Below, piece after piece: positions 1,141-61,098 of a DNA stretch of 64,000 nt. Location of the stretch: NCBI GenBank assembly GCA_000165345.1, contig CM000431.1, forward strand, positions 704,001 to 768,000, in the 5' to 3' direction. The notes under the pieces were generated by a model. The model was not told where the DNA came from. It searched no databases and worked only from the letters and a program-made list of their open reading frames with translations. Position 1 is the first letter of the stretch, and each line of letters begins with the position of its first letter. Both the position numbers and the translations under genes were made by a program.

Positions 1141-1875
1141 CTAATTATCTAATATTGATGAGGCACGATCACTAAGTTTTTGATAAATACGAAGCTCTTT
1201 TAAAATAGATAATATTTTTGTTATAGAAAAATTATCTTTCTCAAATTCGTTTTCCAAAGATTTAATACAATTATCGATCTTAAATTTGTTCTTTTTTGAT
1301 ATTTCATCAAAGTCTGTAATATTAAAATCGGCATTCGAAATTTCCATAATTTTGTCATCTATCTCAAATATCTGTTCTAATAAACTTGAGTTTACTGGAA
1401 TTGTATCCATTATATTTATTAAACTATCTCTTGTCATGCCACTCTTCAAAGATATCAATAATAGAGCTCTTTCAAATGGATCGTTCACAGTGTTATATTG
1501 TTTTATGATATGAATAGAAATATTTTCGTTTACATTGTTACTTACATCAGGATGCAACTTTCTCATTAGTTCTTTATAACTTAAATCAACACTTTTTTTG
1601 TTAATTGAAAATTTATTTTCAAGACCAAATAACTGGAATGCATTCATATTTAAAATTCCAGATAAATTTTCCTCATTTAATAGTTTAAAAGTTTTTCTCA
1701 TATCTGAATAATTGCTTTTATCTCTCAAATATCGATTCGTTTTAAAATTTGAATTTATCAGTAGATAAGAGCATGGGAATTGCTTAAAATAAGAAACTAA
1801 AATTTTGTAATTTGGAGCTAACTTTGATATTAAACGTGAAACCAAAAGTTTTTCATTGCTAATATTAAAGATCAT
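1141..1875 (-). CDS. HSCB: J-type co-chaperone HscB/Jac1 (Fe-S cluster assembly, mitochondrion/mitosome).
   Basis: J-domain with HPD (NAFQLFGLENKFSINKKSVDLSYKELMRKLHPDVS…) followed by the HscB-type helical C-domain (…NDPFERALLLISLKSG…). N-terminal 70 aa basic/hydroxylated, as expected for a targeting extension. Confidence 0.7.
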   Translation of the reverse strand: MIFNISNEKLLVSRLISKLAPNYKILVSYFKQFPCSYLLINSNFKTNRYLRDKSNYSDMRKTFKLLNEENLSGILNMNAFQLFGLENKFSINKKSVDLSYKELMRKLHPDVSNNVNENISIHIIKQYNTVNDPFERALLLISLKSGMTRDSLINIMDTIPVNSSLLEQIFEIDDKIMEISNADFNITDFDEISKKNKFKIDNCIKSLENEFEKDNFSITKILSILKELRIYQKLSDRASSILDN

Positions 1876-1907: not shown

Positions 1908-1923
1908 CTTGGCGGTAGCCGAC
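1908..1923. promoter_or_regulatory. TTGGCGG (E2F-like) element in the 89-bp divergent spacer between Jac1/HscB (-) and POP1 (+).
   Basis: cttggcggtagccgac at 1908-1923, the only GC-rich block in the spacer. Confidence 0.35.
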
Positions 1924-4437: not shown

Positions 4438-5322
4438 TTATAGTAGTTTAATTTTAGGTTTTCTTTTCATTGACGAAACTTTTGATAACAATAATTTTGG
4501 GGATTTAGTAGATATTAAGTACGCTTTGGAACCAGAAGTTTCAGATGATTTACTTTCTTCTTTACACTCTAAGAAATGTCTCGGAAGGCTAATGATATAG
4601 CTTTTTGTATATTCCTTTGGTAAATTTGATGAATAGTCTCTAACATATTTGTATAACTTATTTTCAATTTTATTATAAAGTGAGAACCTTGTCGTGGGAT
4701 GATTCCAACCTTCGTCCAATTCAAGAATGGTGTCCATGCCCTCTTCCTGAGAATCAAGCATCACTTGGAATGTTGAGCAGTAATTCATATCTAAAGGTAT
4801 AATGTCTAGTATCGATACAGCTGTAACATTTTGTTTTATTGGATGCATTAGTTTTACTACTTGATCATCAGTTTCTATTGTACCCCTCTCCATACAAACA
4901 GACTGACTGGTAATATCGCATTCATTTGCTTTAGTGCCATAATAAACTCCAATTATTTCTTCATCTATTATTGCCAAATCATCTGACGATATATGATTTT
5001 TACGAGAGGGATTTTCAACCGCATCTTCGGCTTTAATTGAATCATTTGAAAAGCCTGCATTATGTCTAGGGATCATATTTATTTGCAAATTGTGTGTAAA
5101 TTCATATAGAGTTGTAAGGTATTCTTGAATACTGGCTTGGCTAATTGGAAAATTAATATATTCAGGTTCAGATGATAAAAAAGGTAGTTTAATTAAGCCC
5201 GAAAAAAACTCATGTTTGTATGGGAACGGCATATTAGAGTCTGATAAATTTGCAGATGAAACCTGAAGACTCTTACGAAAATAATCTGCAACATTATGAT
5301 TTAGCTTGCTTCTTAATTGCAT
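4438..5322 (-). CDS. Hypothetical protein (294 aa), no motif recognised.
   Basis: Long uninterrupted ORF in AT-rich DNA, convergent with POP1, the two stop codons separated by 1 nt. Composition typical of a real coding frame. Confidence 0.45.
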   Translation of the reverse strand: MQLRSKLNHNVADYFRKSLQVSSANLSDSNMPFPYKHEFFSGLIKLPFLSSEPEYINFPISQASIQEYLTTLYEFTHNLQINMIPRHNAGFSNDSIKAEDAVENPSRKNHISSDDLAIIDEEIIGVYYGTKANECDITSQSVCMERGTIETDDQVVKLMHPIKQNVTAVSILDIIPLDMNYCSTFQVMLDSQEEGMDTILELDEGWNHPTTRFSLYNKIENKLYKYVRDYSSNLPKEYTKSYIISLPRHFLECKEESKSSETSGSKAYLISTKSPKLLLSKVSSMKRKPKIKLL

Positions 5323-6783: not shown

Positions 6784-7893
6784 TCAGTTGTCAATACTGA
6801 AAAACTGTCCGTTATTCACTTGTGTTGCAATTTTAGTTTCAAGCGCTAGTGTCCTAAACATGCTTGCAATATTATCATGTGGATTACCATTATTTATTCC
6901 GAATGGTGAATAGCTTCCTGTTGAATGTATGTTTCTATCCTCCTCACTAATGCTTTGGGTTCCTATTGTCTGCATCCCTAAACTTGGAAAACTACTTGCA
7001 ACTGAGTTTATTTTGCTTTGTGAAGATCTTTTCAAGTCTTGAAGAGCAACTTTTTTTCCTCTTCGTCCAATATTTGGCATTTCATTTGCATTTAATAAGG
7101 ATTCAGAAAACAACCAAGAAATGGCACGCCTAACCTCTATTAAATTTTGTGAAAGAAATTTTATAGAGGAAACTTTAGAACACCACTTAATATGATATTC
7201 AGCATGAGGGCCACAATAAAGTACCACTCCAAGAAAATTTGACAACTTTTTTTTTGATATTTCTTCAGCCAATCTCTCATTCAGAGCTACATCTGCAGAC
7301 GTAACAATCAACCTTTTACAACCATCCAGTTCATTGTTAACATCTAACAACTCCTTACAATTATCTGCAATGAAAACATACGCTCCAAGCGCCTCTACTT
7401 CTTCTTTGAAATTTTTTGCAACATTAATCCCTAAATTTGCTCTTAAAAATAATACAATCGACTTTACTTTGCTTTTAACTTTCACTTCACTATTGTGGAA
7501 ATAATTTGTAACAAAATTGGAATTAATTAATGAAGGCAGAAAATTATCTTTATTATAATAATCATGGCAAGTGTACTCAGCATCATTTACATGATTCATT
7601 CCGTTTATATTTGTGTTAATATTTGATGGTATGCATTCTTCAAAATATTTAGTGTTTTCTACACTATTGAAGTTAACCCAATTATTGATTCCATTAATTT
7701 CGTTTTTTTTGTTTAAAATAGATGAAATATCTTCGTTGTTGTATGTATTATCACTATAATAGTAACAATAACTCTCAAAATCAAGGTCGACTGTATTTCC
7801 TGTGGGTAGAGATAGTGCCAACGTTTCATTTTCCGAAATGCCCTGGCTAAATGAGTTTAAATTAATTAGTTTTTCAATATTAAAACCTGACAT
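6784..7893 (-). CDS. Hypothetical protein (369 aa), Asn-rich N-terminal half and a globular C-terminal half.
   Basis: Uninterrupted ORF. Upstream region at 7979-8003 carries two TGCATGC motifs. No family recognised. Confidence 0.5.
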   Translation of the reverse strand: MSGFNIEKLINLNSFSQGISENETLALSLPTGNTVDLDFESYCYYYSDNTYNNEDISSILNKKNEINGINNWVNFNSVENTKYFEECIPSNINTNINGMNHVNDAEYTCHDYYNKDNFLPSLINSNFVTNYFHNSEVKVKSKVKSIVLFLRANLGINVAKNFKEEVEALGAYVFIADNCKELLDVNNELDGCKRLIVTSADVALNERLAEEISKKKLSNFLGVVLYCGPHAEYHIKWCSKVSSIKFLSQNLIEVRRAISWLFSESLLNANEMPNIGRRGKKVALQDLKRSSQSKINSVASSFPSLGMQTIGTQSISEEDRNIHSTGSYSPFGINNGNPHDNIASMFRTLALETKIATQVNNGQFFSIDN

Positions 7894-7978
7894 ATCTTTA
7901 TTCTTCTGACTTATCTTTGTTATTAATATTAATTATTGAAGGTTTTTCGTATAGAAAGTTATGCAACTTTAAAAGTAT

Positions 7979-8003
7979 TGCATGCGAAATTTTGGTGCAT
8001 GCA
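7979..8003. promoter_or_regulatory. Two TGCATGC(A) motifs 85-110 bp upstream of the 6784..7893 (-) gene.
   Basis: ttgcatgcg at 7978-7986 and gtgcatgcacgcacatgcc at 7995-8013. GCATGC is a palindromic motif widely over-represented in apicomplexan (AP2-regulated) promoters. Confidence 0.4.
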
Positions 8004-8148
8004 CGCACATGCCAGGTCAAATACACTTTTTTCAGAAGTTAGAAATTAGTATAACTTTTTGGAAATGTTTATAACTCGTAATTGACAAATATCATATAAA
8101 CCTAAATCCTCCGTTCACCCCACTCCAGGTTTATAATGAAAACAATCA

Positions 8149-10218
8149 TTATTTCGGTGTTTGTGTATTAATTCCTTGTGTCGCGGAGCTAGAGATATTT
8201 GAACTAGATATTGAAGATTGTTTGTCCTCAAAACTATCAAAATGTGAATCAAATGAGCTACAGCTGCAGGTTTCGGAATATTCATCGCTTTCATCACTTA
8301 ATATTGGACGGCTCCCGAGCCTGAACCAAGGTAAAATTGCCTTATTAATCATTGTTTGTAAACTTTTTACATTATCAAATTCCCCAGAAACAGATTGATC
8401 CAGTACCACATCTTCACACTTTTCAAAATTGTTAGGTTGATATATCATCAAAATCAACGGAATTATATATTTTCTTATTATGATTTGGAATGCAGAAATA
8501 GGATCATTTCCGCAGGAAGATGCTTCTCCGCAATAAAGCAATATTTCTTTAAATTCCCAATAGTCCAAACCTTTCGGATTAGTAATGACTGCAGAGTAGC
8601 ATCTTTCTAATTGAATTGGAGTAATATATTCCTCAAAATTCCCTCCTAGTAAACCAGAATCATTCATTAAATTGTAAAATTGACGATAAGAAAGTCTGTC
8701 ACTATTGGGCCCAGAGTAATAAACAAAGATCCTATATAATTTCTTATCATCCTCTTGATTAATGCTTGTAAGCGCTACTAAAATTTCTGATTCTGGGTCT
8801 GAAATTTTTTGAATTTTTTTTTTTTGAAGGTTTTTCTTCTCGCTTTTTTTTAAATCTTGTTGATTTAGCTCTTCCAGCTCGGGTTTTACAACAATCTCCT
8901 GAAGTCTTAGCTGATCTTGTATATTATAAACATTTAAATAATCAAATACTTGATTTTGATGTTCTTCATTGGAAGGATCATCTAATTCTCTCTGGATGTT
9001 AGTTAAATTTAACTCTTGTTCTATGTCACAATAGCAACTAGCATCTGCTACAGAAAAAGTTGCATCAACTGCTACACTATTTAAACTTTGTTCTATTTGG
9101 ATAGAGCTATCCCTTAATTCAGCCTTTATCTGTATATCTTTATCTTTTCTTTGCATTGTTGGATCATTTACTTGAATGGATCTTTCAGACCTAATCAACT
9201 TATTCGAAATTATATCAGCATAATCACAACTAAGTAAAAAAGAAACTACTAAATTCAATTTTTCATCTTCAGTTGCCCCGATCGATCTGAATTTAAATTG
9301 AGAAAAGCGATGCAAGAGCTTGAGAAATAAATTATATTCTATTTGTCTCTCCTCACTTGGTAAATTCTCTTGGCTTGAAGGAAACATCCTACCCAAAATA
9401 TCAATAGGCTTGCTTTTATGATAAAGCTTACTTAAATGAAGCATGCTTGCAAATTGCTTACACTTTAGATAGACTGAGTTATTTGAAAAGTAGTAAAATA
9501 AACTCTCTAGATCCATATTTAATTTACATGGAACAGAAATAATAACTTCATTATTATCATCTTTAGATACCTTAATTAAATTCGATCTTAAGTAGATGTC
9601 ATTTTTGACTTCCTTTTCTAAGTTTTGATTTTCAATATTAAATAAATTATTTTTATCTGCATTTTCTTCACTTAATTGTATTTTTTTTTCTCCAAGTACC
9701 TTGAAATCTTCCGAGTCCTTATTTTTTCTAATATTAAAATCTTCACTATCTACCTTATTTTTCGCATTAGAATCAATATTTGATGGAACAATACTTTGGT
9801 CATCTGATCTATCTAATAATGAAAATTTCCCTAATTCACTCGTAGGATTGTTTTTATTCGTTAAACAATTTGAATTATATTTAGTTGTAATATTTGATTT
9901 TGTGGTATTAACAGAATTCGAGTTTAAACATTTTGAATTAACCTTACTAATACTTGATTTTTCGCAACTATTTAAACTAATTTGTTTGTTTATTATTTTA
10001 GATCTCGAATTATTTACCTTAATATCAAGATTTTTTATTTTTAGATTTGGTTTGTTGCTGTCAGGAGTTTCTGAACCAAGTTTAGATGAATGGCCATTGG
10101 ACAAGAATAATGAAGAATAAAGAGAAGACTTCAAATTATTTGCGTTCATTTGAACAATTAATCCATTTGTTTTTTTCTTAAAATAAATTTGCACACAGCT
10201 CAAGGGCACACAATCCAC
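8149..10218 (-). CDS. Hypothetical Ser/Asn/Lys-rich protein (689 aa). The C-terminal ~150 aa is possibly a p25-alpha/TPPP-like fold (very tentative).
   Basis: Long ORF. N-terminal two thirds low-complexity (S/N/K). The C-terminal segment …YYSGPNSDRLSYRQFYNLMNDSGLLGGNFEEYITPIQLERCYSAVITNPKGLDYWEFKEIL… is globular. Confidence 0.5.
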   Translation of the reverse strand: MDCVPLSCVQIYFKKKTNGLIVQMNANNLKSSLYSSLFLSNGHSSKLGSETPDSNKPNLKIKNLDIKVNNSRSKIINKQISLNSCEKSSISKVNSKCLNSNSVNTTKSNITTKYNSNCLTNKNNPTSELGKFSLLDRSDDQSIVPSNIDSNAKNKVDSEDFNIRKNKDSEDFKVLGEKKIQLSEENADKNNLFNIENQNLEKEVKNDIYLRSNLIKVSKDDNNEVIISVPCKLNMDLESLFYYFSNNSVYLKCKQFASMLHLSKLYHKSKPIDILGRMFPSSQENLPSEERQIEYNLFLKLLHRFSQFKFRSIGATEDEKLNLVVSFLLSCDYADIISNKLIRSERSIQVNDPTMQRKDKDIQIKAELRDSSIQIEQSLNSVAVDATFSVADASCYCDIEQELNLTNIQRELDDPSNEEHQNQVFDYLNVYNIQDQLRLQEIVVKPELEELNQQDLKKSEKKNLQKKKIQKISDPESEILVALTSINQEDDKKLYRIFVYYSGPNSDRLSYRQFYNLMNDSGLLGGNFEEYITPIQLERCYSAVITNPKGLDYWEFKEILLYCGEASSCGNDPISAFQIIIRKYIIPLILMIYQPNNFEKCEDVVLDQSVSGEFDNVKSLQTMINKAILPWFRLGSRPILSDESDEYSETCSCSSFDSHFDSFEDKQSSISSSNISSSATQGINTQTPK

Positions 10219-10363
10219 AATTAATGAAAAAACATTTTAAAACAATTTAAAATCTAAAACTTATGTTTACAAAACTTTTGTAAATCAATTTATTGACTTT
10301 TCAATGTTCAACTATTATATTACTTATTAGATTGTGTTTACAGAGAATTTAAGTTAATATTAT

Positions 10364-12697
10364 CTAGAATTCAATTTTTTCTAATAATTTTTCTCTGTCA
10401 ATTGAACCTTTAAATGTTTTTGGTATATTTGTCTCTATAATTTTGTATGGAATATATGATTTTGGTATGTTAGAATAATTAAGCTCATTCCTTATAAAAT
10501 GTTCAAAATTTTCACTATTCTCGAAGGGTTCATAAATGAATATTATTTTATCATCTTCTGAAATTTTATCATCCTTATTACTGATAACAGTAGAAAAAAA
10601 ATTTTTGGGAAATTTTTTTTTGTTTAAATTCCTTAGAGTACTTACAATTCTATCATTAATTTCTTCAGAACTGTATTTTACGCCTCCAATTTTAATAATT
10701 GAAGAAGAGCGAGATAACCAAAATAAAAATATATTATCTACAAAAATATTATCTTTACAGCATGCGCAAGAATTTAGTTTTTCTTCAATAATTATATTTG
10801 GATCTTTATTGATGTGGGCTACCTGCCTTTCTTCACCTAATATGTACACGGTTGATGGCTCTGAATTTGTATTAATTTTCTCAGCAGTCCAGTAACCTTG
10901 ATCTCCTAATCCAAGATACCAAGGATGATTGTCGCAAATAAATAACATCTTACGACATTTTTGCGTGCTAAAGCCAATTTTATTAATTCTATTTACTATT
11001 TCTCTTGTAATTAATACATTCTCGTGATTAATGTAACCACTCATTATAGTTTTCCCACGGCAAATAATGTGACCAACTTCAAATTCGTTCGTTGGAATAA
11101 GAAAGTTATCTGCATTAATGTCTATTGACTTTACAACAAAAACTTCTGCGAATGGTTGTATAGATCTGCCAATAAAGTACCCATTTTTCTTTTTTGTTTT
11201 AGAATTAATTTCATTGATATTACTTGTGATTTTTAAAGCTGCGTTTAGCAGAGAATGATCCATTAATAAATCAGTTCCGCACAACTGTAAACATGTTTCC
11301 GTTGATCCAAATCTAATTCTTGGAATTTTTCCATTAAATAATTTTTTAAATTCATTTATTAAATCATTTGATACAGCCGATGAGCCAAAAAAAAAACTAA
11401 CTGATGGATGAGATAAATTAGTCAATATTTCATTTCTATCTTCAAAGTAATTATTTTCAATCATTGACGAGAAATATTCGAAGTGTTTTGGAACTAATGG
11501 GACAATCATATTGAAGTTATTACCGTAGCTATTTATTGAGATTTTGATTGTTTCGTTCAATATTTGCCAGTAAACTTTAGAATATTTATGAATTAATATC
11601 AACTTTGATGAGCTCCTAATGCAGTATTCAGTAAAACAAGTACTGTTTACATGATGTAATGGGTTTGTAATAACAAATATAGACTTTATGTTATTGTTAT
11701 TATTACATAAAACACTTAAAGTACTAATCATTCCCGAATAATTACCAAAAGTTAGCTTTGCCCCTTTAGGTCTTCCCGTTGATCCAGACGTAAATACAAT
11801 ATTTCTAACCTTTGAATAAATTTCTGGCCCTGATATGCCCATCTTTTTTCCCACATTAGTTATATTATTCGTTTCATTTCCTGAATAGACGCCCTCAATG
11901 TTACCTAGAGACTGATTAATTTTAGAATTTTGGACTTTTTTTGATGTATTCGTATACTCATTAGCCTTATCAATTTTGACTTGATTTGTTTCAAAAAAGT
12001 TTTCTAAATAATTTTCAGAATAAGAATAAATTTTCTGAGAATCATTAGTCAATTCATTGTTTGGAAAATTATTCAAATATAAGTTTTGATTTGTTAAATT
12101 CGAAAATAAAACCTGATCTGAAGGTAGAAGAAAGATCTTTTTGTCATATTTGGTTGAAAAATTGCTCGATACTTCATCAATAAATGATTTAGGAATATCA
12201 ACATCAAATAGTAGAATTTGGCAATCAGCAACAGATAATTTATATGAGATAATTTCTGGATTATCAACTGCGTAATTTAAAAAAACAGGTATGAAGGTGT
12301 TATTATTATAGCATACTTCTCTAAATATTAAGTCTTCTATTTTATTTCCATCCCATAAGGTACCCACTTTAATTGTATTTATGCTACAACTATCATTTTC
12401 TTTAATTTGGTTCAAATCTACAAATTGATTGAGCTTAATGGTCATAAAATATTGAAAATATTCAAACGAATCTTTTAAAATAGAAATTTTCTCAGGTCTT
12501 TCACCGTTTTTCCTCCAATATTCAATACTGAACTCCTCTTTTGTTTGGTCACATATGTTCTTTTCTGAGTTATAAAATATTGAGCTGTACTCAAAACTTA
12601 CATATTTTTTTTTGGTTTCTGTCGTATTTAGAACCTTCATTTTCATTTTAATAAAATTTATGTTTAAATTGACGGTGAACAACAAAAATACGCACAT
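10364..12697 (-). CDS. AMP-binding (adenylate-forming) enzyme, acyl-CoA synthetase / acyl-AMP ligase superfamily.
   Basis: Core A3 motif VFTSGSTGRPKGAKL (nt ~11761-11810). Downstream A5-like RFGSTETC, A7-like LGLGDQGYW and A8-like IKIGGVKYSSEEIN. 777 aa with an N-terminal extension. Confidence 0.65.
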   Translation of the reverse strand: MCVFLLFTVNLNINFIKMKMKVLNTTETKKKYVSFEYSSIFYNSEKNICDQTKEEFSIEYWRKNGERPEKISILKDSFEYFQYFMTIKLNQFVDLNQIKENDSCSINTIKVGTLWDGNKIEDLIFREVCYNNNTFIPVFLNYAVDNPEIISYKLSVADCQILLFDVDIPKSFIDEVSSNFSTKYDKKIFLLPSDQVLFSNLTNQNLYLNNFPNNELTNDSQKIYSYSENYLENFFETNQVKIDKANEYTNTSKKVQNSKINQSLGNIEGVYSGNETNNITNVGKKMGISGPEIYSKVRNIVFTSGSTGRPKGAKLTFGNYSGMISTLSVLCNNNNNIKSIFVITNPLHHVNSTCFTEYCIRSSSKLILIHKYSKVYWQILNETIKISINSYGNNFNMIVPLVPKHFEYFSSMIENNYFEDRNEILTNLSHPSVSFFFGSSAVSNDLINEFKKLFNGKIPRIRFGSTETCLQLCGTDLLMDHSLLNAALKITSNINEINSKTKKKNGYFIGRSIQPFAEVFVVKSIDINADNFLIPTNEFEVGHIICRGKTIMSGYINHENVLITREIVNRINKIGFSTQKCRKMLFICDNHPWYLGLGDQGYWTAEKINTNSEPSTVYILGEERQVAHINKDPNIIIEEKLNSCACCKDNIFVDNIFLFWLSRSSSIIKIGGVKYSSEEINDRIVSTLRNLNKKKFPKNFFSTVISNKDDKISEDDKIIFIYEPFENSENFEHFIRNELNYSNIPKSYIPYKIIETNIPKTFKGSIDREKLLEKIEF

Positions 12698-23090: not shown

Positions 23091-23777
23091 TTAAAATGAA
23101 ACTATTTTTTCTAATTTCCTACTTAGATTAAGAATTGCTTGTTTATTCGTAGAAATGACATTTTCATTCAAACATTTAGATTTTAGAATAACTAGTATAT
23201 GGTCATTGGAATTATAATTAAAATTTATATCTTTGAATTCGGTTTGAACAAAAATCACCACCTCATCTGCTTTGAGAGGGTTAAAAGTACACAAATAACA
23301 GCTGATATAAAGCGTGTTGTAAAGCGTAGGGGGTGTTGAATTTAAAGAACCAATATTCAAATGCTGCATAATCTCCAATATTGATTTAGATGAAAAACAT
23401 TCAACCACTTTATTGACCTGTATAGTCGCTTTTTTATCTTTATCGCTTGTTAAAGCCATTTCCAAACTATTAGTTGTGGGTTCAATAATTGGTGTTTGGT
23501 ACGAAATGTTGACTAAGTCTTTGCTTTCTGTAGGATAAATATACTGTAATATACGAGCTTCTGCTTCAGTGTGTTTTTGCGCCTTTGTAAAGTCTAATTT
23601 TCTAGAAAAACAATGCGACTCCATAACATTAGGACACCATGTGTTCTCACGCCACTTAACAAGCTTAACTTCTACGCATAAGGATTTCAACAGGTCAAGA
23701 AGGTCCTCAAGTTGATTAATATTGACTCTACCTACTTTACTACATTCGATATAACTCATTTGTTTATCTAATAGCAA
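23091..23777 (-). CDS. Hypothetical protein (228 aa).
   Basis: Uninterrupted ORF. Start is 92 bp from the divergent ATG4 start. No motif recognised. Confidence 0.45.
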   Translation of the reverse strand: MLLDKQMSYIECSKVGRVNINQLEDLLDLLKSLCVEVKLVKWRENTWCPNVMESHCFSRKLDFTKAQKHTEAEARILQYIYPTESKDLVNISYQTPIIEPTTNSLEMALTSDKDKKATIQVNKVVECFSSKSILEIMQHLNIGSLNSTPPTLYNTLYISCYLCTFNPLKADEVVIFVQTEFKDINFNYNSNDHILVILKSKCLNENVISTNKQAILNLSRKLEKIVSF

Positions 23778-23869
23778 TAGATTATTAAAACATTTAAGGC
23801 AGCGCGGTAATTCAAATTAAGCTTACATTCAAACTTTGGTTCCAAAGTTTTAATTTAAAACATGAAATA

Positions 23870-24934: not shown

Positions 24935-26209
24935 TTAAAAAATGGGGATTGAACCTATTATTTCCAGATTAGTTATCAAATAGGGGTATTCCAGACCAGG
25001 AACATTGGCATTTGGATGAGGAGTTACTTTGATTGAATATTGTAACTCTTTGATATCGTCTATGGAACCGGAAATTATTCTTCCATTAGAGTCTTGCAAG
25101 CAATTAATTTGTTGCGTTTTAAATGTAAACATAAATTCCGGTTGATTTGTTTGTATTTTACAATCCTTAAAAGAAAACATTAAATCTGAGATTTCTGCTC
25201 CTATCAGCTCTACATTTCCTAATTGAAGAATTTTTGTATTTAAGCAAAGCCCCATCTTTTTAAGTTTTTCAATGTTTGAGCAAAGTTGTCTATATGCTAC
25301 ATCCCCACAATGCAATCTCAGCTTGTGCTCGTCGCATTTAAGATATGATTCCATGAATTTTGGGAGAATGTATTCTTCAAAAAATGACATAAAGTCAGTT
25401 AATTTAAAATTTGGATTGATTGCCTTCATTTCTTTAACGACTTTAGATATTTTATTTCCATTATATATAGTTTTAAAATATTCACTTTCAAATATATTTT
25501 TCAATAATAACATATCCTTAAGTTTTACGCCGAGCCTGTTCCGTAAAGAATAATTGTGTAGCACAACAGAATTTTCTACTATTGGAACTATAGTTTTGCC
25601 TTCAATATTCTTATTTATAATTTTCTTATTGCTAGTTTTAATTTCACTGTTACTTTCTTTATTACAATCTGACTTCCAACTCGAAAGCTCTCTTTCTATC
25701 ACATTCCTATTGGTTTCATCATAGAATAAAACTTTTATTATTTCTATGTGCCTTGAAAAAAGGTTACTTGAAAGGAATCGAGAGAAAATTGAAGAAATTT
25801 TAGCTGTAAAAAATTTAATATGGGATAAAAATCTATTAATTTTATACAATTCTGCAATATTTATGAAATAAACCGAAGAATAGAAATTTATAAATGGTAA
25901 ATTACTGTAAAACTTGAAATATAAATTATCAAATTTTTTCTTCAAAAGTGCAATATCATCCTGTAGTATTTTGTCACTCTTAATTTCATTTTTTAATTGT
26001 GAAACAAATTTATTAAAATATGAATTAAATGTTGAATAACATCTTCGTTTTCTAAAATTTAAATTATTAAGTTGAGTGAAATGCATATAATATTTGTTGC
26101 TCTGATAAAACAAGAAAATATTTCTGCATATAGAAATATCCTGTCGAAGGTTGTATCTCAAGCTATTTATGCAAACTTTTGTTAAGGCATTGCTACTAAG
26201 CCCTTCCAT
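24935..26209 (-). CDS. Tim44-like domain protein (mitochondrial/mitosomal inner-membrane import motor tether; Tim44/MRPL45/Mba1 fold).
   Basis: C-terminal ~150 aa (FMSFFEEYILPKFMESYLKCDEHKLRLHCGDVAYRQLCSNIEKLKKMGLCLNTKILQLGNVELIGAEISD…FMFTFKTQQINCLQDSNGRIISGSIDDIKELQYSIKV…) parallels the Tim44 C-domain pattern (…VLEAY.KGD…L…CSE..Y..L…GL…D..ILDI.NVDL…G…F…F.AQ.I.CVRD..G.VVEG…I….YVW). Basic N-terminus. Confidence 0.55.
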   Translation of the reverse strand: MEGLSSNALTKVCINSLRYNLRQDISICRNIFLFYQSNKYYMHFTQLNNLNFRKRRCYSTFNSYFNKFVSQLKNEIKSDKILQDDIALLKKKFDNLYFKFYSNLPFINFYSSVYFINIAELYKINRFLSHIKFFTAKISSIFSRFLSSNLFSRHIEIIKVLFYDETNRNVIERELSSWKSDCNKESNSEIKTSNKKIINKNIEGKTIVPIVENSVVLHNYSLRNRLGVKLKDMLLLKNIFESEYFKTIYNGNKISKVVKEMKAINPNFKLTDFMSFFEEYILPKFMESYLKCDEHKLRLHCGDVAYRQLCSNIEKLKKMGLCLNTKILQLGNVELIGAEISDLMFSFKDCKIQTNQPEFMFTFKTQQINCLQDSNGRIISGSIDDIKELQYSIKVTPHPNANVPGLEYPYLITNLEIIGSIPIF

Positions 26210-26394
26210 TAATAAATATTAATGTCTAAAATATATGAAGTATTACAAATAAATCTAAGAACATTAATTTTTTTGGATTGATTTCATTGAAATATAATAA
26301 GATAAATTTCAACCTGAGCATTAATTTAAAAACTAAATAAATATACCGCTGTGTATAATGAGCTTGTAAAGAAATACCTTATTTTTTTTTTTTA

Positions 26395-27792
26395 ATGAAA
26401 AGAAAAGATAAAAATGAAATTATAAATACGAATTACATTGCAAGTAAGCCTTGGTTAGCTGAGGAGGTTAATAATAGACTAAAAGAAAGAGACAATATCT
26501 TTAATGTTTGTGAAGATGAGTTTGAAAGTAATAAATGGTTTCAATTAATGAACAAATTTTCTAAATATGGAGAAATAACTAGAGGGAACAAAATAAAATT
26601 ATTTGAAAATAGCCGGGATTCATACTTGTCGATGATTGAAAGTATCGATTCAGCGAAAAAGAGAGTATGGTTTGAAACATATATCTTTGAGGAATGCGAA
26701 ACTGGAGAAAAATTTGTTGATTCGTTTTGTGAAGCATCACAAAGAGGATGCGAAGTTATTTTACTACTAGACGCTTTTGGTAGCTCTAAATTCCCGAAAA
26801 GATGGGAACAAAAGTTACTAAAAAATAATGTGAAGGTTATATGGTTTAATCCCATTTCTCAAATTTTTAAGGATACCTTTTTATTCAGGAATCACAGAAA
26901 GTTATTAATTGCTGATGAAAAGGCATATTGCGGATCAATTAATATTACTAACCGAATTAATGATTCATCGTTGAATGACGAAGCTAATATCAAAAATTAC
27001 AACATAATTTGTAACTCGGCGTATAAAAAACTAATTTTTTTATTTAAACAAGTAATTTATTCAATTTCACCAATAAAGGTTAATAAGCTTTGTTTCTACG
27101 ATGTACACGCGGAGATAGAAGGCCCTGCAACTTACGATCTCGGAAAAGTTTTTATCGACTCACTCAAAGAATCTAAATGTGGACAAATTCCAATAATATT
27201 CCAGAGACCGAAGGAAATCAAGAATGGCACTATATTACAGGTACTATACAGTAATACAAGAAGGCAGCATAGAGGAATTCAAAATGTTTTAAATATTGCA
27301 ACAAAAAATTCAAATAGTTATATTTATCTCACAACTTCTTATTTTTTTCCTCCAAGTTTTCTACGTAGAGCCATTCAAACTGCAATTAATAATAATGTAA
27401 AAGTTTCGATGTTGTTATCAGGTAGATCCGATATTCCAGGAGATACAATTGCAACAAAGTATTTAATCAAAAGGTTTATTCAAAACAATGTAAGATTTTT
27501 TTTTACAAGAAATATTCACTGTCACGCTAAATACATTACAATAGATGGGATATGGTCATCTTTTGGAAGTTTTAACTGGGACGGGTTTTCTGCGAATCGA
27601 AATTTGGAAGTTTCTGTAGCGTCATTCGATTCAAAGATTGCAAGCCAGTTAATGAAAATGCACTCAAAAATGACGCATTCATTTCAAAGTACAGAACAAA
27701 CAATAAATCAATGGAATGAGCAGTCTAGGCTCACCAGAGTTTGCTCAAAAGCTGCATATATGCTTATCAAATTTGTAAATAAGTATTTGTAA
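26395..27792 (+). CDS. PLD-superfamily phospholipid synthase with two HKD motifs, i.e. a PLD-type cardiolipin synthase (CLS_pld) or PGP synthase of the cardiolipin pathway.
   Basis: HKD1 NHRKLLIADEKAYCGSINITNRI (nt ~26890-26960) and HKD2 HCHAKYITIDGIWSSFGSFNWDGFSANRN (nt ~27516-27600). N-terminal region (…KIKLFENSRDSYLSMIESIDSAKKRVWFETYIFEE…GEKFVDSFCEASQRGCEVILLLDAFGS) matches the first PLD repeat of bacterial-type Cls. Confidence 0.7.
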   Translation: MKRKDKNEIINTNYIASKPWLAEEVNNRLKERDNIFNVCEDEFESNKWFQLMNKFSKYGEITRGNKIKLFENSRDSYLSMIESIDSAKKRVWFETYIFEECETGEKFVDSFCEASQRGCEVILLLDAFGSSKFPKRWEQKLLKNNVKVIWFNPISQIFKDTFLFRNHRKLLIADEKAYCGSINITNRINDSSLNDEANIKNYNIICNSAYKKLIFLFKQVIYSISPIKVNKLCFYDVHAEIEGPATYDLGKVFIDSLKESKCGQIPIIFQRPKEIKNGTILQVLYSNTRRQHRGIQNVLNIATKNSNSYIYLTTSYFFPPSFLRRAIQTAINNNVKVSMLLSGRSDIPGDTIATKYLIKRFIQNNVRFFFTRNIHCHAKYITIDGIWSSFGSFNWDGFSANRNLEVSVASFDSKIASQLMKMHSKMTHSFQSTEQTINQWNEQSRLTRVCSKAAYMLIKFVNKYL

Positions 27793-37060: not shown

Positions 37061-37337
37061 TATTAGTTTAATTAATTTTAGAAATCCATATGCGGTACAT
37101 GTATTATTGAGGGGAAATATTCAATTATTATCAACAGCAAATATTTTAAAAACTTAAAAATATTAGTATTAAGTTGGAATATTTTAGCTCTAACCTAGGT
37201 TATTTGTTGAATTTGAAATAAATTAAAACCTTTAACGAAAACTTAGTTTATTAGTGTCATTATTTCTGAAAAAAATAAAATGATCAGATTTTATCAAATT
37301 GAGAATAATATAAATTATTTTAAGAAAATGAAAATAA

Positions 37338-37481: not shown

Positions 37482-40400
37482 TTGTATTCAAATACAAATT
37501 TAACAGGCGTGATGAGAAATATAGATTTTTTTGAAATTTTTAAAAGATTGGATATTAATTATACAAATAAACAAGTAAATTCATGTTCAAGTATTAATTT
37601 AAAAAAAGACAGTATTCAACAAGAAGTTAATTCAAAAGAAAATCAACCACCTGAAAGTGGTGGATATAAACATCGTGAAAATGATGGAATATATTTAGAC
37701 ATTAACTTCAACTCTAACTCTATTGCACTCCAGCCATGTATCGCAATTAAAGAGAAATCATTCAGATTACCAATATTTGAATTGACGTATGATTTTCAAA
37801 TGCCTAATACTACATACCAAGTTAAACAAAACAGCAGGCTTTATGAAGAAATTTACTCATTAGTATATGCAAATTATTCAAATATCATAATTAATGAGAT
37901 TACTCCTTCGAGAAAAATAAAAATTTCTGAAACAAAACCTATTTTTGAAATCTCTGAAAAAGAAGGGAATCAATATTCTATATTTTGGGATGATGAAGAT
38001 ATCAAATCCAACTCATCAATTTTACTTGGTGAGTTTACTGGATTGCTGTATAATGACGAAAAAAAATACTATAACAAGTATTCTTTCAAATTGCCCAATG
38101 TTTCAAATGAAGAGTTAAGTGTTATTTTGGATGCGTCTCATTACTGTAATGAATTTGCTTTTCTAAAACATTGTAGGCTCCCCTTTCCATTCGATGATCA
38201 AAGAATAAGACCAAACACTCAGTTACAGTGGTTATTTATTGATAAATGGCCACATCTTGTTGTATTAACTATTCCTGGAATCGAAATTAAACAAGGCGAT
38301 GAACTTGTTGTCGATTTTGGGAACAATTATCATATGTATTACGTAAATAGTTTGAAAACAATATTTAAAAACATCATCAAAATTAAAGCGGAGAATACGC
38401 AAATTTTCCAAATTTGCACTGTATGTAGACTTGAACTAGAGAAAAGCATTATTGAATGTAAAAAGTGTATAATTTGCCGTGAATACATACATGATAAGTG
38501 TGGTTATTATTATAAAAACAGTGGAAACTCGGTTTGTTGTACTACTTGTTTAAAAAAATCTTTTAATATTATCTTTGGCATTAATAAAAAATTTGATTAT
38601 CCCTTCAGCGGAACAAATAATTCGAGTAAGGATTCAATTATTAGTATACTAAAAATTTATGATGGGGATGCATGCGAAGAATGTTTATCATTGTTTCGTA
38701 AAAAAGACTTGGAATTAGAAAGATGTAAGTCTGCATTCTTTTGTAAACTACTCCATGAATTTTATCAGGTAGATAAACACCCTGATAATATTGACTCTTT
38801 TTATGCAGAATATAATTCCAAAAACGAGACAGAACCAAAGTCAAGCATTAATATGGACATTAAAGCCCTTGAAAATATTTATTATATTTTTGAAAGACTA
38901 GTGAAATACTTAAAGGATTTTTATGATGAAAACAGTGTTTGCGAAAGATTAAAATTTGAATCATATTTTTCCCAAGATAATTATGTTGGTTATTCAAACC
39001 GTCAATCAAAATGTTTATTTCCAGATTCGTTAATCTACGAAACATGGGGAAAGTCGAAATGGAAAGATTTTATTTTTTGGGATCAGGCAAAAAATTCTTG
39101 GGTCGGATTACTAAGACCAAATGGGATATTTTCAAGATTCGATTGCTGTAATAAATATCCAACTATAATTGAAAGTTTTTATGAAACAGAAAAGTGGGTA
39201 GAACAGAGAATAAGCGAAACTACAATTCCAAAGAATTTGATTTCTGCAATATTGAATAATTCTGATAAAGGTTCCAATTGTAATGAAAAAGACTATTCTA
39301 AAAGTCAAGAAGATATTGTTTCACATACTTATTACCACTCGCCGTATTTACCTACTGATCTAGCATCACACCCAGACTTCAAAATATTCAGCAATGAAAA
39401 TGGAAACAAGTATCAAGGTAATTTACCTCCAGTCAACGAAACTAATAATCTATTTTCAATGAATGATAATCAGTTATTGAATGGAAAACTCAAGAACGCA
39501 AATGCTACTCATAGTGTTGAATCAGAATTGTTCTCATTTTCAAATTCGCCTGAATTTTTATTAAATGATATTAGACCACGTGTTTCTACCACAGGTTATA
39601 TTCAATGCTGTTCGCCAGTCAACAGAAAACGTAGAATAAGGTCAACTCTCCCCTTAACTTCGAATGCTGCAAAATGCCCAACTGAATGGAGAGTAAGAGG
39701 GATCACGTGGCATGCAGAAAGAAAAGCATTTATTGTACCATATAGAAGAGATAAAGATGGTGGGCTTACTTCAACAACTTTTGGTGCAATGAAGTATGGA
39801 AGCCCTTTGACTGCATTTTTAAAAGCTTTAGAATTTAGGGAAAATTATTTAAAGGAGCAGGCGACAAAGTTACCAGAAGAAATAAAGCAGCCAAGTGTTA
39901 TTTGTGATCAAGCATTATTAATTAGAAATTTACCAAATATAATTTGGGATTCGAACAAACTTGTATGGAGAGCTCTTGCAGATGAGGAACTCCTATGCAA
40001 TAATAACTTAACACATAAATTAACTTTTTATACACAAGATATTGAAATAAACGCAATGCCTTATGGAGCAAGAATTGCATATGAAATAGCCGAAGTTTGC
40101 TATATTCGTAGAAAAGCATTACTTCTTAACTCAAAGGTAAATACTATAAAAAATTCATCTGTAAGCCGTATAAGAAATAAGAGTAATTCATTAGAGGGTC
40201 ATGGAGACGAGTACCAATTGATATTAGAGGATCAAAACCATTTATTATTACCTAAAAATTCACAAATGGATATTTCAAACTCGCAAAGCTCTTGTTTCAA
40301 ACAAATCAGGTTGAAAATTATTTTTCCAAATGGAGAGGAAGTTATTAGAAGTGACTTGATTGCATGGCATTTTAGGAGTAATTCATGGATAATTACCAAT

Positions 40401-41144
40401 ATGATTGATGGAAGTACATCTAATCAAACGAAAAATATTAGTTTCCTCAATTATTCAGATTCCAATATAAAACAGAAATCTCTTATTCAATCATTAATTT
40501 ACGCAATTGAATGTTGTACATCTATACCTCCAAAGTGTCAAGTATACGTTCATGCAGAGGAAGCTGAGTCAATAATTGATTCTGAAGATCTTGCGGAATT
40601 GTTGAAACCTTTCCCAACAGGGATATCGTGGTATTGCAAAAAAAGAAGGTTTTATACATCAAATGGGCTTGATAGTAATGGAAGAGGACAACACTTTAGT
40701 ATTGCATTATACGGTTCACTTATTTCTGCATTTAATGCCGCAATTGACTATAGAAATATTTTTTTGAAAAATAGGAGAAAGGCTATTTTGCCAAAAGTTG
40801 AATGGATTCTATGCTTTCCTGTTAATCAATGTTCAACTAATACAGGTTCAAATGAAAGAATAAGCGATTCAGATATTATTAATAATCGAGATATAGTAAA
40901 GGAATTGGATAGTTGCAACATTTATCATTTATCCGATAATTATATGGGGAGTTGTAACGATAGAAATATTGATCGAATAAATAGTCAAATATCATCATTA
41001 AATACATGTATTTCAGGAGATTCATATCATTCTGGAAGTGATTGGCTTCAACATCCAACAACAGTTTCATTGTTGGACGATCAGATAATTGAGCCACAAA
41101 ATGATTTGGATAACAGAATAATGAATATTGAATTAATAGAATAA
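37482..41144 (+). CDS. ApiAP2-family DNA-binding protein with two AP2 domains plus an N-terminal SET-like domain and a PHD-like Cys-rich finger.
   Basis: AP2-1 (nt ~39671-39855): CPTEWRVRGITWHAERKAFIVPYRRDKDGGLTSTTFGAMKYGSPLTAFLKALEFRENYL. AP2-2 (nt ~40621-40775): ISWYCKKRRFYTSNGLDSNGRGQHFSIALYGSLISAFNAAIDYRNIFL. SET-like (nt ~38019-38340): ILLGEFTGLLYNDEKKYYNKYSFKL … ILDASHYCNEFAFLKHC … HLVVLTIPGIEIKQGDELVVDFGNNY. PHD-like (nt ~38415-38560): CTVCRLELEKSIIECKKCIICREYIHDKCGYYYKNSGNSVCCTTCLKK. Confidence 0.7.
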   Translation: MYSNTNLTGVMRNIDFFEIFKRLDINYTNKQVNSCSSINLKKDSIQQEVNSKENQPPESGGYKHRENDGIYLDINFNSNSIALQPCIAIKEKSFRLPIFELTYDFQMPNTTYQVKQNSRLYEEIYSLVYANYSNIIINEITPSRKIKISETKPIFEISEKEGNQYSIFWDDEDIKSNSSILLGEFTGLLYNDEKKYYNKYSFKLPNVSNEELSVILDASHYCNEFAFLKHCRLPFPFDDQRIRPNTQLQWLFIDKWPHLVVLTIPGIEIKQGDELVVDFGNNYHMYYVNSLKTIFKNIIKIKAENTQIFQICTVCRLELEKSIIECKKCIICREYIHDKCGYYYKNSGNSVCCTTCLKKSFNIIFGINKKFDYPFSGTNNSSKDSIISILKIYDGDACEECLSLFRKKDLELERCKSAFFCKLLHEFYQVDKHPDNIDSFYAEYNSKNETEPKSSINMDIKALENIYYIFERLVKYLKDFYDENSVCERLKFESYFSQDNYVGYSNRQSKCLFPDSLIYETWGKSKWKDFIFWDQAKNSWVGLLRPNGIFSRFDCCNKYPTIIESFYETEKWVEQRISETTIPKNLISAILNNSDKGSNCNEKDYSKSQEDIVSHTYYHSPYLPTDLASHPDFKIFSNENGNKYQGNLPPVNETNNLFSMNDNQLLNGKLKNANATHSVESELFSFSNSPEFLLNDIRPRVSTTGYIQCCSPVNRKRRIRSTLPLTSNAAKCPTEWRVRGITWHAERKAFIVPYRRDKDGGLTSTTFGAMKYGSPLTAFLKALEFRENYLKEQATKLPEEIKQPSVICDQALLIRNLPNIIWDSNKLVWRALADEELLCNNNLTHKLTFYTQDIEINAMPYGARIAYEIAEVCYIRRKALLLNSKVNTIKNSSVSRIRNKSNSLEGHGDEYQLILEDQNHLLLPKNSQMDISNSQSSCFKQIRLKIIFPNGEEVIRSDLIAWHFRSNSWIITNMIDGSTSNQTKNISFLNYSDSNIKQKSLIQSLIYAIECCTSIPPKCQVYVHAEEAESIIDSEDLAELLKPFPTGISWYCKKRRFYTSNGLDSNGRGQHFSIALYGSLISAFNAAIDYRNIFLKNRRKAILPKVEWILCFPVNQCSTNTGSNERISDSDIINNRDIVKELDSCNIYHLSDNYMGSCNDRNIDRINSQISSLNTCISGDSYHSGSDWLQHPTTVSLLDDQIIEPQNDLDNRIMNIELIE

Positions 41145-60850: not shown

Positions 60851-61098
60851 CATTTTACCGCCTTAGCTACGGCACGACGTTCTTTGAGTGGAAATTATGA
60901 AGTTACAAAAAATTTACAACCAAATATTCATTGAAAAATTTATTAAAGGAGTTGAAAGTGTGTCGCCAATTACAAGTTAATAAAATGAATTTGAATGGTA
61001 AAAATTTAATTGATACATATTTTTAGCGAATAAGCAATAGTATATAGAGCTTCTAGATTTAATTTTTTTGTATTGCAATTACAAATTTGAATAATCAT

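Follow-up and report, generated by a model that had tools for sequence, protein, structure and literature searches.

The region analysed here is a window of 64,000 nt from Cryptosporidium parvum chromosome 3 (GenBank assembly GCA_000165345.1, contig CM000431.1, positions 704,001 to 768,000). Two genes lie head to head within this window. The first gene, on the minus strand (24935..26209), codes for 424 amino acids and is an exact database match to EAK89037.1, 'possible mitochondrial import inner membrane translocase subunit TIM44'. The second gene, cgd3_2940, lies on the plus strand (26395..27792) and codes for a PLD-type (ClsB-like) cardiolipin synthase (CLS) of 465 amino acids, again an exact database match. 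Both ATGs are separated by a spacer of 185 nt (26210..26394). A first-pass annotation had described a divergent pair starting 185 bp apart, and the ORF coordinates and strands are exactly as claimed. The names of both genes date from 2004, and cgd3_2940 has been published as CpCLS (Kong et al. 2018, Table S1).

The Tim44-like identity of the first gene product was confirmed with the Pfam profile PF04280. This profile, on which the first-pass annotation had also made its reading depend, matched residues 255-402 (25004..25447, minus strand), the C-terminal domain, with E=3e-22 and 79.7 bits against a cut-off of 29.6. The model TIGR00984 (tim44) was also matched (E=9e-22), but with 77.6 bits against a trusted cut-off of 552 and over model positions 220-359 only. 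This shortfall reflects how strongly the N-terminal half has diverged, and it makes membership at the equivalog level less certain while leaving homology untouched. Matches were likewise obtained to human TIMM44 (2cw9) and to yeast Tim44 (8e1m_C). The phmmer alignment to 8e1m_C starts at query residue 166 and spans yeast residues 179-356.

The published layout of Tim44 consists of a presequence, a PAM-binding N-domain and a C-domain (PMC5455965). Sequence comparison revealed a basic N-terminus, a conserved block and a C-domain in the C. parvum protein. Its first 60 residues contain nine K/R versus two D/E, and an R-3-type motif, RCY|S, is located at residues 56-59. R55 is invariant among the homologues and R56 nearly so. 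Immediately thereafter follows a conserved N-domain block, which is common to C. parvum and Babesia Tim44. Codons 1-58 (26036..26209, minus strand) are thus a putative cleavable presequence, inferred from these features. In the 8e1m_C alignment, codons ~219-250 (25460..25555, minus strand) correspond to the stretch of yeast Tim44 that precedes the C-terminal domain and runs into it, and on this basis they would form the A1/A2 membrane-binding helices. S221, L236 and F240 are invariant among the homologues. Binding of Tim44 to cardiolipin membranes, as stated in the first-pass annotation, is established in yeast, where the A1/A2 helices are required for cardiolipin-dependent bilayer binding (PMC5580885). 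A hydrophobic segment of TM grade was not found in the C. parvum protein (maximum KD19 score 1.07). Gene 1 encodes a Tim44 with a presequence-like N-terminus of ~58 residues, a helical N-domain and a C-terminal Tim44 domain. By homology, it is predicted to be attached peripherally to the inner membrane on its matrix side, where it would tether mtHsp70 to the Tim17/23 channel. With yeast Tim44 (8e1m chain C) and human TIMM44 (2cw9) it shares the PF04280 domain, the lack of a TM helix, the basic presequence-like N-terminus and, putatively, the tripartite organisation. In contrast to these, the C. parvum protein is very divergent (E ~1e-7 to the PDB Tim44s), evolves quickly (30-46% identity within the genus) and belongs to a DNA-less mitosome lacking a respiratory chain.

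The product of cgd3_2940 has two PLDc_2 stretches (Pfam, E=8e-36) and an intact HKD motif at H167/K169/D174 as well as at H377/K379/D384, in agreement with the earlier description as a two-HKD PLD-superfamily protein. The first HKD signature, RxHRKx4Dx5Gx2N, covers codons 165-183 (26887..26943, plus strand), and R165, H167, K169, D174, G180 and N183 show no variation among 46 homologues. The second signature, HxKx4Dx6Gx2NxDx2Sx5E, covers codons 377-405 (27523..27609, plus strand). Here H377, K379, G391 and N394 are invariant, and conservation of D384, D396, S399, N403 and E405 reaches at least 90% among the 46 homologues. The extended Cls signatures have been defined as RxHRKx4Dx5-6Gx2N and HxKx4Dx6Gx2NxDx2Sx4-5E (PMC13175493), and the synthase contains both of them.

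Structure prediction resulted in a confident two-lobed PLD model. The exception is a lineage-specific insert at codons ~190-230 (26962..27084, plus strand), which is a gap in the comparison with E. coli ClsB and has a pLDDT of 43-57 versus >85 elsewhere. The top Kyte-Doolittle segment of the protein (residues 204-222) lies within this insert; its score of 0.93 is below the level of a TM helix, and the insert is possibly a membrane-association element. Pfam gave no match to PF13396 (PLDc_N), and no segment of TM grade was found. The synthase is therefore ClsB/ClsC-like and not ClsA-like; the wider family does not depend on such N-terminal TM helices. Gene 2 encodes a soluble or peripheral ClsB-like transphosphatidylase of the PLD superfamily, and its orthology with the Plasmodium enzyme, which has been characterised, predicts cardiolipin as its product.

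The spacer between the two genes has a GC content of 18%. It must accommodate the 5' UTR and the core promoter of each gene. Since two promoters have to fit into 185 nt, some sharing of regulation is likely on physical grounds, and some transcriptional coupling across this distance is possible. E2F-like GGCGC, GCATGC, the G-box and CCAAT are upstream motifs of C. parvum; a search of the 185 nt for these motifs found none of them. The spacer can be aligned among close relatives only, and the sole element recurring across them is TACCGC/AACCGC, near the CLS side. In C. parvum TACCGC is located at 26344..26349 (plus strand), 50 nt upstream of the CLS ATG. The same hexamer precedes three unrelated ORFs at a distance of 27-37 nt, and all five copies in the window are intergenic. 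It is probably a general motif of promoter-proximal or 5'-UTR regions. Comparison among relatives and within the window revealed no conserved element specific to the Tim44/CLS pair. A full-text literature search by the gene ids of the pair returned no matches.

Next to other gene pairs, the layout is ordinary. Of the 25 adjacent ORF pairs in the window, seven (28%) have a divergent orientation; their spacers measure 89, 92, 185, 255, 276, 421 and 532 bp, so that the Tim44/CLS spacer is mid-range among them. The published mean intergenic distance in C. parvum is 504 bp. Head-to-head orientation and a short spacer are the default in this compact genome. Adjacency of two mitosome-related genes is expected by chance at 0.6-1.6 pairs per genome, given our own assumption of 50-80 such genes among ~3,900; the wider range is roughly 0.2-1.6 pairs. 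The Tim44/CLS arrangement is no more than chance would give.

Gene order was also compared between species. The block kinase / 228-aa ORF / ATG4 / Tim44 / CLS / KRR1 / KNTC1-like has the same order in five other Cryptosporidium species. As a pair, Tim44 and CLS are conserved only through this longer genus-wide block, which includes the unrelated ATG4 and KRR1. The spacer measures 152-185 bp in all five intestinal Cryptosporidium species examined and 1,454 bp in C. andersoni. Outside the genus, the comparison covered P. malariae, B. caballi and another contig of apicomplexan type, and in none of them did a Tim44 lie closer than 10 kb to CLS. In B. bigemina, Tim44 adjoins Tim17 and GrpE, not CLS. 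Within the genus, identity is 30-46% for Tim44 versus 50-74% for CLS, which indicates that Tim44 evolves much faster than CLS.

Because such a layout is normal where the genome is compact, and was not conserved in the lineages compared outside the genus, we regard the pair as an ordinary neighbourhood with no demonstrated functional module. Probably, these are two separate mitosome genes that became neighbours by accident, with no selection for a co-regulated module. Tim44 and CLS would be nuclear housekeeping genes that serve the relict mitochondrion (mitosome) of C. parvum and function separately, positioned head to head because the genome is extremely compact. Their adjacency would be a lineage-specific accident of gene order, fixed together with the other genes of the syntenic block. 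A cellular link between the two proteins is plausible, since cardiolipin helps Tim44 and TIM23 to bind and function.

The first-pass annotation had instead proposed a co-regulated functional module, in which one bidirectional promoter within the 185-bp spacer drives a lipid synthase and a protein tethered by the lipid. Head-to-head genes at this distance, and a spacer that stays short in intestinal Cryptosporidium, are consistent with such a selected module. Bidirectional promoters have been proposed previously for C. parvum, and like the bidirectional-promoter gene pairs of compact eukaryotic genomes the two genes have a short common spacer. The membrane binding of yeast Tim44 depends on cardiolipin (PMC5580885), and the cardiolipin-pathway enzyme Tam41 was originally discovered as a TIM23 maintenance factor. 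However, more than a quarter of the pairs in the window are divergent as well, conservation spans the whole block with its unrelated genes, and the spacer is widely expanded in C. andersoni. The adjacency is missing in Plasmodium, Babesia and the other contig, TACCGC is CLS-proximal and also upstream of unrelated genes, and chance alone would yield pairs of mitosome genes. Pair-specific conservation, in contrast to known bidirectional-promoter pairs, was not found. These comparisons thus gave the module proposal no support. We consider a selected promoter module, which would keep import motor and cardiolipin supply in step, unlikely.

Cardiolipin is characteristic of the mitochondrial inner membrane. 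The synthase might nevertheless act outside the mitosome, at the ER, the plasma membrane or the feeder-organelle interface, in which case the products of the two genes would never meet. Its N-terminus is not presequence-like (eight K/R versus seven D/E in the first 40 residues). Furthermore, several C. parvum proteins once presumed to be mitosomal, NDH2 and one transhydrogenase among them, localise elsewhere, and PfCls is additionally peripheral in gametocytes (PMC13175493). Against this, PfCls equally lacks a predicted MTS but is mitochondrial in asexual stages (PMC13175493), and EfCLS is mitochondrial in Eimeria (PMC5964319). An extra-mitosomal synthase is improbable on this comparison, and we infer a mitosomal location for both proteins.

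The first-pass annotation had assigned the synthase to a CLS/PGP synthase type. Only the CLS part of this assignment stood, as BLASTP gave E=6e-27 with E. coli ClsB versus E=0.42 with E. coli PssA. Among the NCBIfam models, ClsB (NF008427) scored best with E=1.3e-41 and 143 bits, below its equivalog cut-off of 281, followed by bac_cardiolipin/Cls (TIGR04265) with E=3.5e-36 and 125 bits, below its cut-off of 290. Other PLD profiles scored 38 (DrmC), 35 (NucT, cut-off 211) and 24 bits (PssA NF006946, cut-off 314). All named homologues are cardiolipin synthases, namely the Plasmodium and Babesia orthologues (E=5e-79 with P. malariae Cls, E ~1e-67 with Babesia Cls) and then bacterial Cls. The protein therefore groups with cardiolipin synthases and not with nucleases or secreted PLDs, the distinction on which the first-pass annotation had made its reading depend. 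From these comparisons, cgd3_2940 is predicted to be a CLS, and neither a PGP synthase nor a nuclease.

It is very unlikely that the protein is a PGP or PS synthase, a general phospholipase D or a nuclease. The scores under the curated cut-offs would allow for this, and the fold alone does not discriminate, as PLD1/2, PLD3, PssA and F13 score alike. Recombinant PfCls produced no detectable cardiolipin in vitro but had PLD and transphosphatidylation activity (PMC13175493), and a PG-making role is conceivable in C. parvum, which reportedly lacks PGPS. However, the Cls models score ~100 bits above PssA and NucT, every named homologue is a CLS, and both Cls-specific extended signatures are present. 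In addition, PfCls raises cardiolipin in E. coli, and knockout of PbCls lowers cardiolipin species (PMC13175493). The ClsB and Cls models of NCBIfam derive from bacterial sequences, and the orthologues of eukaryotes have diverged. A Nuc-type nuclease has a single HKD in a chain of ~160-180 aa and is therefore excluded by the two HKD motifs in one chain of 465 aa. A PGP synthase of the PssA/PGS1 branch, compared via E. coli PssA, was dismissed on the PssA bit score (24 versus 314) and the E-value of 0.42.

That the first gene product is some other Tim44-domain protein, e.g. a mitoribosomal MRPL45/Mba1 homologue, and not a TIM23 motor subunit, is highly improbable: Pfam scores the C-terminal domain only, the full-length cut-off of TIGR00984 is missed and the protein is diverging fast, but its best PDB relatives are all true Tim44s, the yeast alignment extends upstream of the C-domain, the putative tripartite layout would fit the published description of Tim44, and the C. 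parvum mitosome contains no DNA, so that no mitoribosome is expected.

The closest characterised relatives of the CLS are the Plasmodium enzymes (PfCls PF3D7_0609400/PbCls; PMC13175493), and the C. parvum sequence is already part of the alignment in that paper. P. malariae Cls is an orthologue with 38% identity. The same two Cls signature motifs are found in cgd3_2940; neither PfCls nor cgd3_2940 has a predicted TM helix or MTS, and both carry a disordered insert between the HKD halves. In contrast, cgd3_2940 is shorter (465 aa versus 636 aa in P. malariae) and would serve an organelle without oxidative phosphorylation. The Plasmodium enzymes have been characterised biochemically and genetically, whereas cgd3_2940 is known from its sequence. 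E. coli ClsB (YbhO) is 24% identical over 356 residues, including both HKD halves. ClsB lacks N-terminal TM helices (PMC13175493), similar to cgd3_2940, in which PLDc_N was not detected. The differences to ClsB are the score of cgd3_2940 below the equivalog cut-off, its ~40-residue insert after HKD1 and its eukaryotic host. EfCLS and EfPGPS of Eimeria falciformis (PMC5964319) are also PLD-type enzymes with duplicated domains and without a TM helix, and CpCLS is listed together with them in one family table. In Eimeria, PGPS and CLS are both present and both are predicted to carry a mitochondrial targeting peptide, whereas C. parvum has CLS only, and the N-terminus of cgd3_2940 is unlike that of EfCLS in this respect.

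C. parvum has been reported to lack a PGP synthase (Kong et al. 2018), in contrast to Plasmodium. The ClsB-like cgd3_2940 may therefore make its own PG. A side reaction from PE and glycerol to PG has been shown for E. coli ClsB and PfCls (PMC13175493), but not for cgd3_2940. We tentatively suggest that cgd3_2940 could be the sole remaining enzyme of the PG/cardiolipin branch, converting PE and glycerol to PG and then to cardiolipin, and that the tight placement next to Tim44 in intestinal species could then loosely couple expression; at present this is rather doubtful. If true, the mitosome would gain a self-contained one-enzyme route to the lipid needed by the Tim44/TIM23 import motor. The CLS apparently works without an upstream PGP synthase, which bears on the source of its substrate.

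The gene-order finding itself carries little weight, as genes and functions were annotated earlier and the neighbourhood looks accidental. Of more general relevance, the C. parvum mitosome would retain an import-motor subunit and a CLS despite having no respiratory chain. This retention fits a role of cardiolipin in protein import and membrane integrity, not in respiration. The CLS is of bacterial type, unlike the host enzyme, and could conceivably be targeted selectively by drugs. Tim44 diverges fast and CLS more slowly, which hints that constraints on the import motor are relaxed or shifting in reduced organelles.

A third mitosome-related gene lies in the window outside the pair, on the minus strand (1141..1875). 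It codes for an HscB/Jac1-type J-protein of 244 aa with a match to HSCB_C (PF07743, E=3.3e-9, 37.4 bits against a cut-off of 22.1). A DnaJ domain was not reported by Pfam at E<=0.01; an HPD tripeptide is visible on inspection of the translation. The N-terminus is basic and poor in acidic residues. The first-pass annotation had counted this gene as a third organellar gene in the window. It is a real ORF of the proposed family, but it lies 23 kb from Tim44/CLS, with about a dozen unrelated genes in between (including POP1, PRP8, a kinase and ATG4), and adds little. With it, three of the 26 ORFs in the window are mitosome-related, versus 0.3-0.5 expected under the assumed gene numbers. This excess is modest, and several windows like this one are expected genome-wide.

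The divergent gene pair was found exactly where the first-pass annotation had placed it. The Tim44 gene is an ORF of 424 aa on the minus strand (24935-26209) and the CLS gene an ORF of 465 aa on the plus strand (26395-27792), and their start codons are separated by a spacer of 185 nt with a GC content of 18%. The window is AT-rich (GC ~29%), with long uninterrupted ORFs that are tightly packed, and an exact-sequence look-up identified its source as Cryptosporidium parvum chromosome 3. Both genes are already known, and the annotations of their proteins date from the 2004 genome. The Tim44 record (EAK89037.1) reads 'possible mitochondrial import inner membrane, translocase subunit TIM44' and the CLS record (EAK89258.1/QOY42648.1) 'probable phosphatidylserine/phosphatidylglycerophosphate/cardiolipin synthase, 2x PLD'. 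CLS_pld was scored positive in C. parvum, C. hominis and C. muris (Tian et al. 2012), the protein is CpCLS (cgd3_2940) in Kong et al. 2018, and the C. parvum sequence is part of the alignment in a 2026 paper on Plasmodium Cls (PMC13175493). A full-text literature search returned no main-text mention of cgd3_2920, cgd3_2930, cgd3_2940 or cgd3_2950; cgd3_2940 was found in one supplement only. The length of CLS is 476 aa in the 2004 model (EAK89258.1), 479 aa in one Logan assembly and 465 aa in current models, and these variants are a difference in N-terminal annotation. Directly 5' of the CLS ATG lies a T-run (26381-26393).

The Tim44-like assignment was borne out by the Pfam profile PF04280, which matched residues 255-402 with E=3e-22 and 79.7 bits (cut-off 29.6). 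The NCBIfam profile TIGR00984 (tim44) matched the C-terminal part only (E=9e-22), well under its full-length cut-off. In the PDB, relatives were true Tim44 only, namely human TIMM44 (2cw9) and yeast Tim44 in the TIM23 complex (8e1m chain C), and the alignment with yeast Tim44 (query 166-340, yeast 179-356) extended upstream of the C-terminal domain. A hydrophobicity scan revealed no TM-grade segment. The first 60 residues contain 9 K/R and 2 D/E, and an R-3-type motif (RCY|S) is present at residues 56-59. In an alignment with the Cryptosporidium and Babesia homologues, for which the search supplied 9 proteins only, R55 was invariant and R56 nearly so, and a conserved helical block followed directly. 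Thus arranged, the predicted protein would agree with the published tripartite layout of Tim44, in which a presequence is followed by a PAM-binding N-domain and a Tim17-binding C-domain (PMC5455965). A Tim44-domain protein of the MRPL45 type is unlikely because the C. parvum mitosome contains no DNA (PMC12691609), and both the PDB matches and the reach of the yeast alignment speak for Tim44 itself.

The PLD protein had been described as being of the cardiolipin synthase / PGP synthase type, and only the first half of this description held. Two PLDc_2 stretches were detected with Pfam, and both HKD motifs, the catalytic motif of the superfamily, are intact. Both extended Cls signatures, as worded in PMC13175493, are present, and across 46 aligned homologues they varied little or not at all. 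Among the NCBIfam profiles, ClsB (1.3e-41) and bacterial Cls (3.5e-36) ranked far above DrmC, NucT and PssA, with every score under its curated bacterial cut-off. Outside the genus, the nearest homologues were proteins annotated as cardiolipin synthase in Plasmodium and Babesia, at 34-38% identity; bacterial Cls came next. Neither a PLDc_N domain nor a TM helix was detected by Pfam and the hydrophobicity scan, and therefore the protein is ClsB-like. BLASTP against E. coli ClsB gave E=6e-27 with both halves covered. Eukaryotic PGP synthases are related to the PssA branch of PLD proteins (PMC5964319). A PGP synthase was rejected here on the PssA profile, which was far weaker than ClsB, and on BLASTP against E. 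coli PssA, which gave E=0.42. A nuclease was rejected on the far weaker NucT profile and the presence of two HKD motifs, and the first-pass grouping with cardiolipin synthases rather than nucleases was right. We conclude from these comparisons that cgd3_2940 is predicted to be a cardiolipin synthase. The AlphaFold model (mean pLDDT 87, pTM 0.86) was confident except for an insert at ~190-230, which holds the most hydrophobic stretch of the protein. With this model as query, Foldseek matched nothing more specific than the generic PLD fold. To our knowledge no structure of a PLD-type Cls has been solved, and the fold search was therefore unable to assign the subfamily. A PDB sequence search was equally uninformative on this point.

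Cardiolipin supports many inner-membrane proteins, and the lipid link is therefore not particular to Tim44. The premise that Tim44 proteins bind cardiolipin membranes is sound on yeast data, where Tim44 binds the bilayer in a cardiolipin-dependent manner via helices of its C-terminal domain (PMC5580885). In addition, Tam41, an enzyme of the cardiolipin pathway, was first identified as a TIM23 maintenance factor (PMC7018664). The Plasmodium orthologue PfCls is membrane-associated and mitochondrial despite having no predicted MTS or TM helix; it forms PG from PE and glycerol, and PA from CDP-DAG, and it raised cardiolipin in E. coli, and knockout of PbCls lowered cardiolipin, membrane potential and respiration (PMC13175493). 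Like PfCls, CpCLS has an N-terminus that is not presequence-like, and we infer a mitosomal location for the enzyme. PLD-type cardiolipin synthases require PG. In Table S1 of Kong et al. 2018, no PGP synthase is listed for C. parvum, and the same study gives one each in Plasmodium, Toxoplasma, Neospora and Eimeria. E. coli ClsB and PfCls have both been shown to make PG from PE and glycerol (PMC13175493). Since CLS needs PG and no PGP synthase is listed, the PG for CpCLS would have to be either scavenged or made from PE and glycerol by the ClsB-like enzyme itself. This listed lack of a PGP synthase is of more interest than the adjacency of Tim44 and CLS.

Neither the layout statistics nor synteny, the spacer footprint or evolutionary rates supported the proposal that the pair forms a co-regulated module with a shared bidirectional promoter. 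When ORFs of at least 150 aa in the window were counted as genes, 7 of the 25 neighbouring pairs were head-to-head, with spacers of 89, 92, 185, 255, 276, 421 and 532 bp. One of these seven is HscB/POP1, 89 bp apart. The mean intergenic distance genome-wide is 504 bp (PMC7840661). Assuming 50-80 mitosome-related genes among ~3,900 (gene numbers that are our own assumption), 0.6-1.6 adjacent mitosome-gene pairs are expected by chance in the genome, and 0.7-2.6 window-sized stretches with at least three mitosome-related genes. The Tim44/CLS arrangement is not special. The HscB/Jac1 J-protein, which had been named as a further organellar-type gene, was recovered on the minus strand (1141-1875) with an HSCB_C domain, an HPD tripeptide and a basic N-terminus. 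The 23 kb that separate it from Tim44/CLS contain genes for POP1, an AMP-binding enzyme, an LRR protein, PRP8, a kinase and ATG4.

The block kinase / 228-aa ORF / ATG4 peptidase / Tim44(-) / CLS(+) / KRR1 / KNTC1-like is kept in C. meleagridis, C. canis, C. felis, C. bovis and C. andersoni. As unrelated genes are kept alongside, the conservation is that of the whole block. The spacer measures 152-185 bp in C. parvum, C. canis, C. felis and C. bovis. An annotated gap of 299 bp in C. meleagridis results from a shorter Tim44 model (382 aa). The C. andersoni spacer measures 1,454 bp (locus L001, 4547-6000), versus 152-185 bp in the intestinal species and 70-390 bp for neighbouring spacers of the same locus, and it contained no ORF of at least 60 aa and no Rfam match. 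In Plasmodium malariae, Babesia caballi and a contig from Logan SRR26661632 (L006), neither annotation nor tblastn placed a Tim44 within 10 kb of CLS. The CLS on this Logan contig is 35% identical to CpCLS, and its source is probably a piroplasm-like apicomplexan because the downstream Rpb2 and MACPF context is common to Babesia caballi (L005). In Babesia bigemina (L012), CLS is not adjacent to Tim44 (10001-11450), which is directly abutted by Tim17 (11451-12144), with GrpE/Mge1 (7099-7909) a few kb upstream. These three presequence-import genes within ~5 kb (7099-12144) form a functionally tighter cluster than the C. parvum pair. Identity to C. parvum in C. meleagridis, C. canis, C. felis, C. 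bovis and C. andersoni, respectively, was 89, 46, 38, 34 and 30% for Tim44, 94, 74, 71, 61 and 50% for CLS, and 96, 82, 74, 78 and 81% for KRR1. Tim44 diverged quickest among the six block genes compared, ahead even of the 228-aa ORF without a Pfam domain. By these rates, Tim44 and CLS are not under comparable constraint.

Upstream motifs known for C. parvum, namely E2F-like GGCGC, GCATGC, G-box and CCAAT, were all absent from the 185-nt spacer in a motif scan. A sigma-70 promoter/terminator scan of the spacer gave 0 matches, with models that are not applicable to a eukaryote, and nothing was found by Rfam and tRNA scans of the whole window. The five-species spacer alignment was reliable for C. 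parvum versus C. meleagridis only. The sole recurring block was ACCGC, which precedes the CLS ATG by ~40-50 nt. The window contains five copies of the hexamer TACCGC, an ordinary number, at 1912-1917(-), 23804-23809(-), 26344-26349(+), 37092-37097(-) and 60856-60861(+). All five copies are intergenic, with intergenic spacers making up ~7% of the window, a statistic that is post hoc. Four are in sense orientation 27-50 nt 5' of an ATG (HscB, the 228-aa ORF, CLS and the KNTC1-like ORF). The hexamer is kept in C. meleagridis and partly in C. bovis and C. andersoni. This pattern, with copies ahead of three genes besides CLS, points to a candidate promoter-proximal or 5'-UTR element of general use rather than a signal specific to Tim44/CLS.

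Convergent ORF ends were found 1 nt apart for POP1 and a 294-aa ORF (4436/4438), 18 nt apart for ATG4 and Tim44 (24916/24935) and 6 nt apart for KRR1 and the KNTC1-like ORF (28975/28982). At such distances the 3' UTRs must overlap, in agreement with the abundance of antisense transcription reported at 3' ends in C. parvum (PMC7840661). Eight ORFs of the window had no Pfam match at E<=0.01. Four have 2,427, 1,220, 1,070 and 689 aa (49863-57146(-), 37482-41144(+), 44868-48080(-) and 8149-10218(-)), and four have 228-369 aa (6784-7893(-), 62669-63628(-), 4438-5322(-) and 23091-23777(-)). Though without a Pfam match, the 228-aa ORF is kept across the genus Cryptosporidium.
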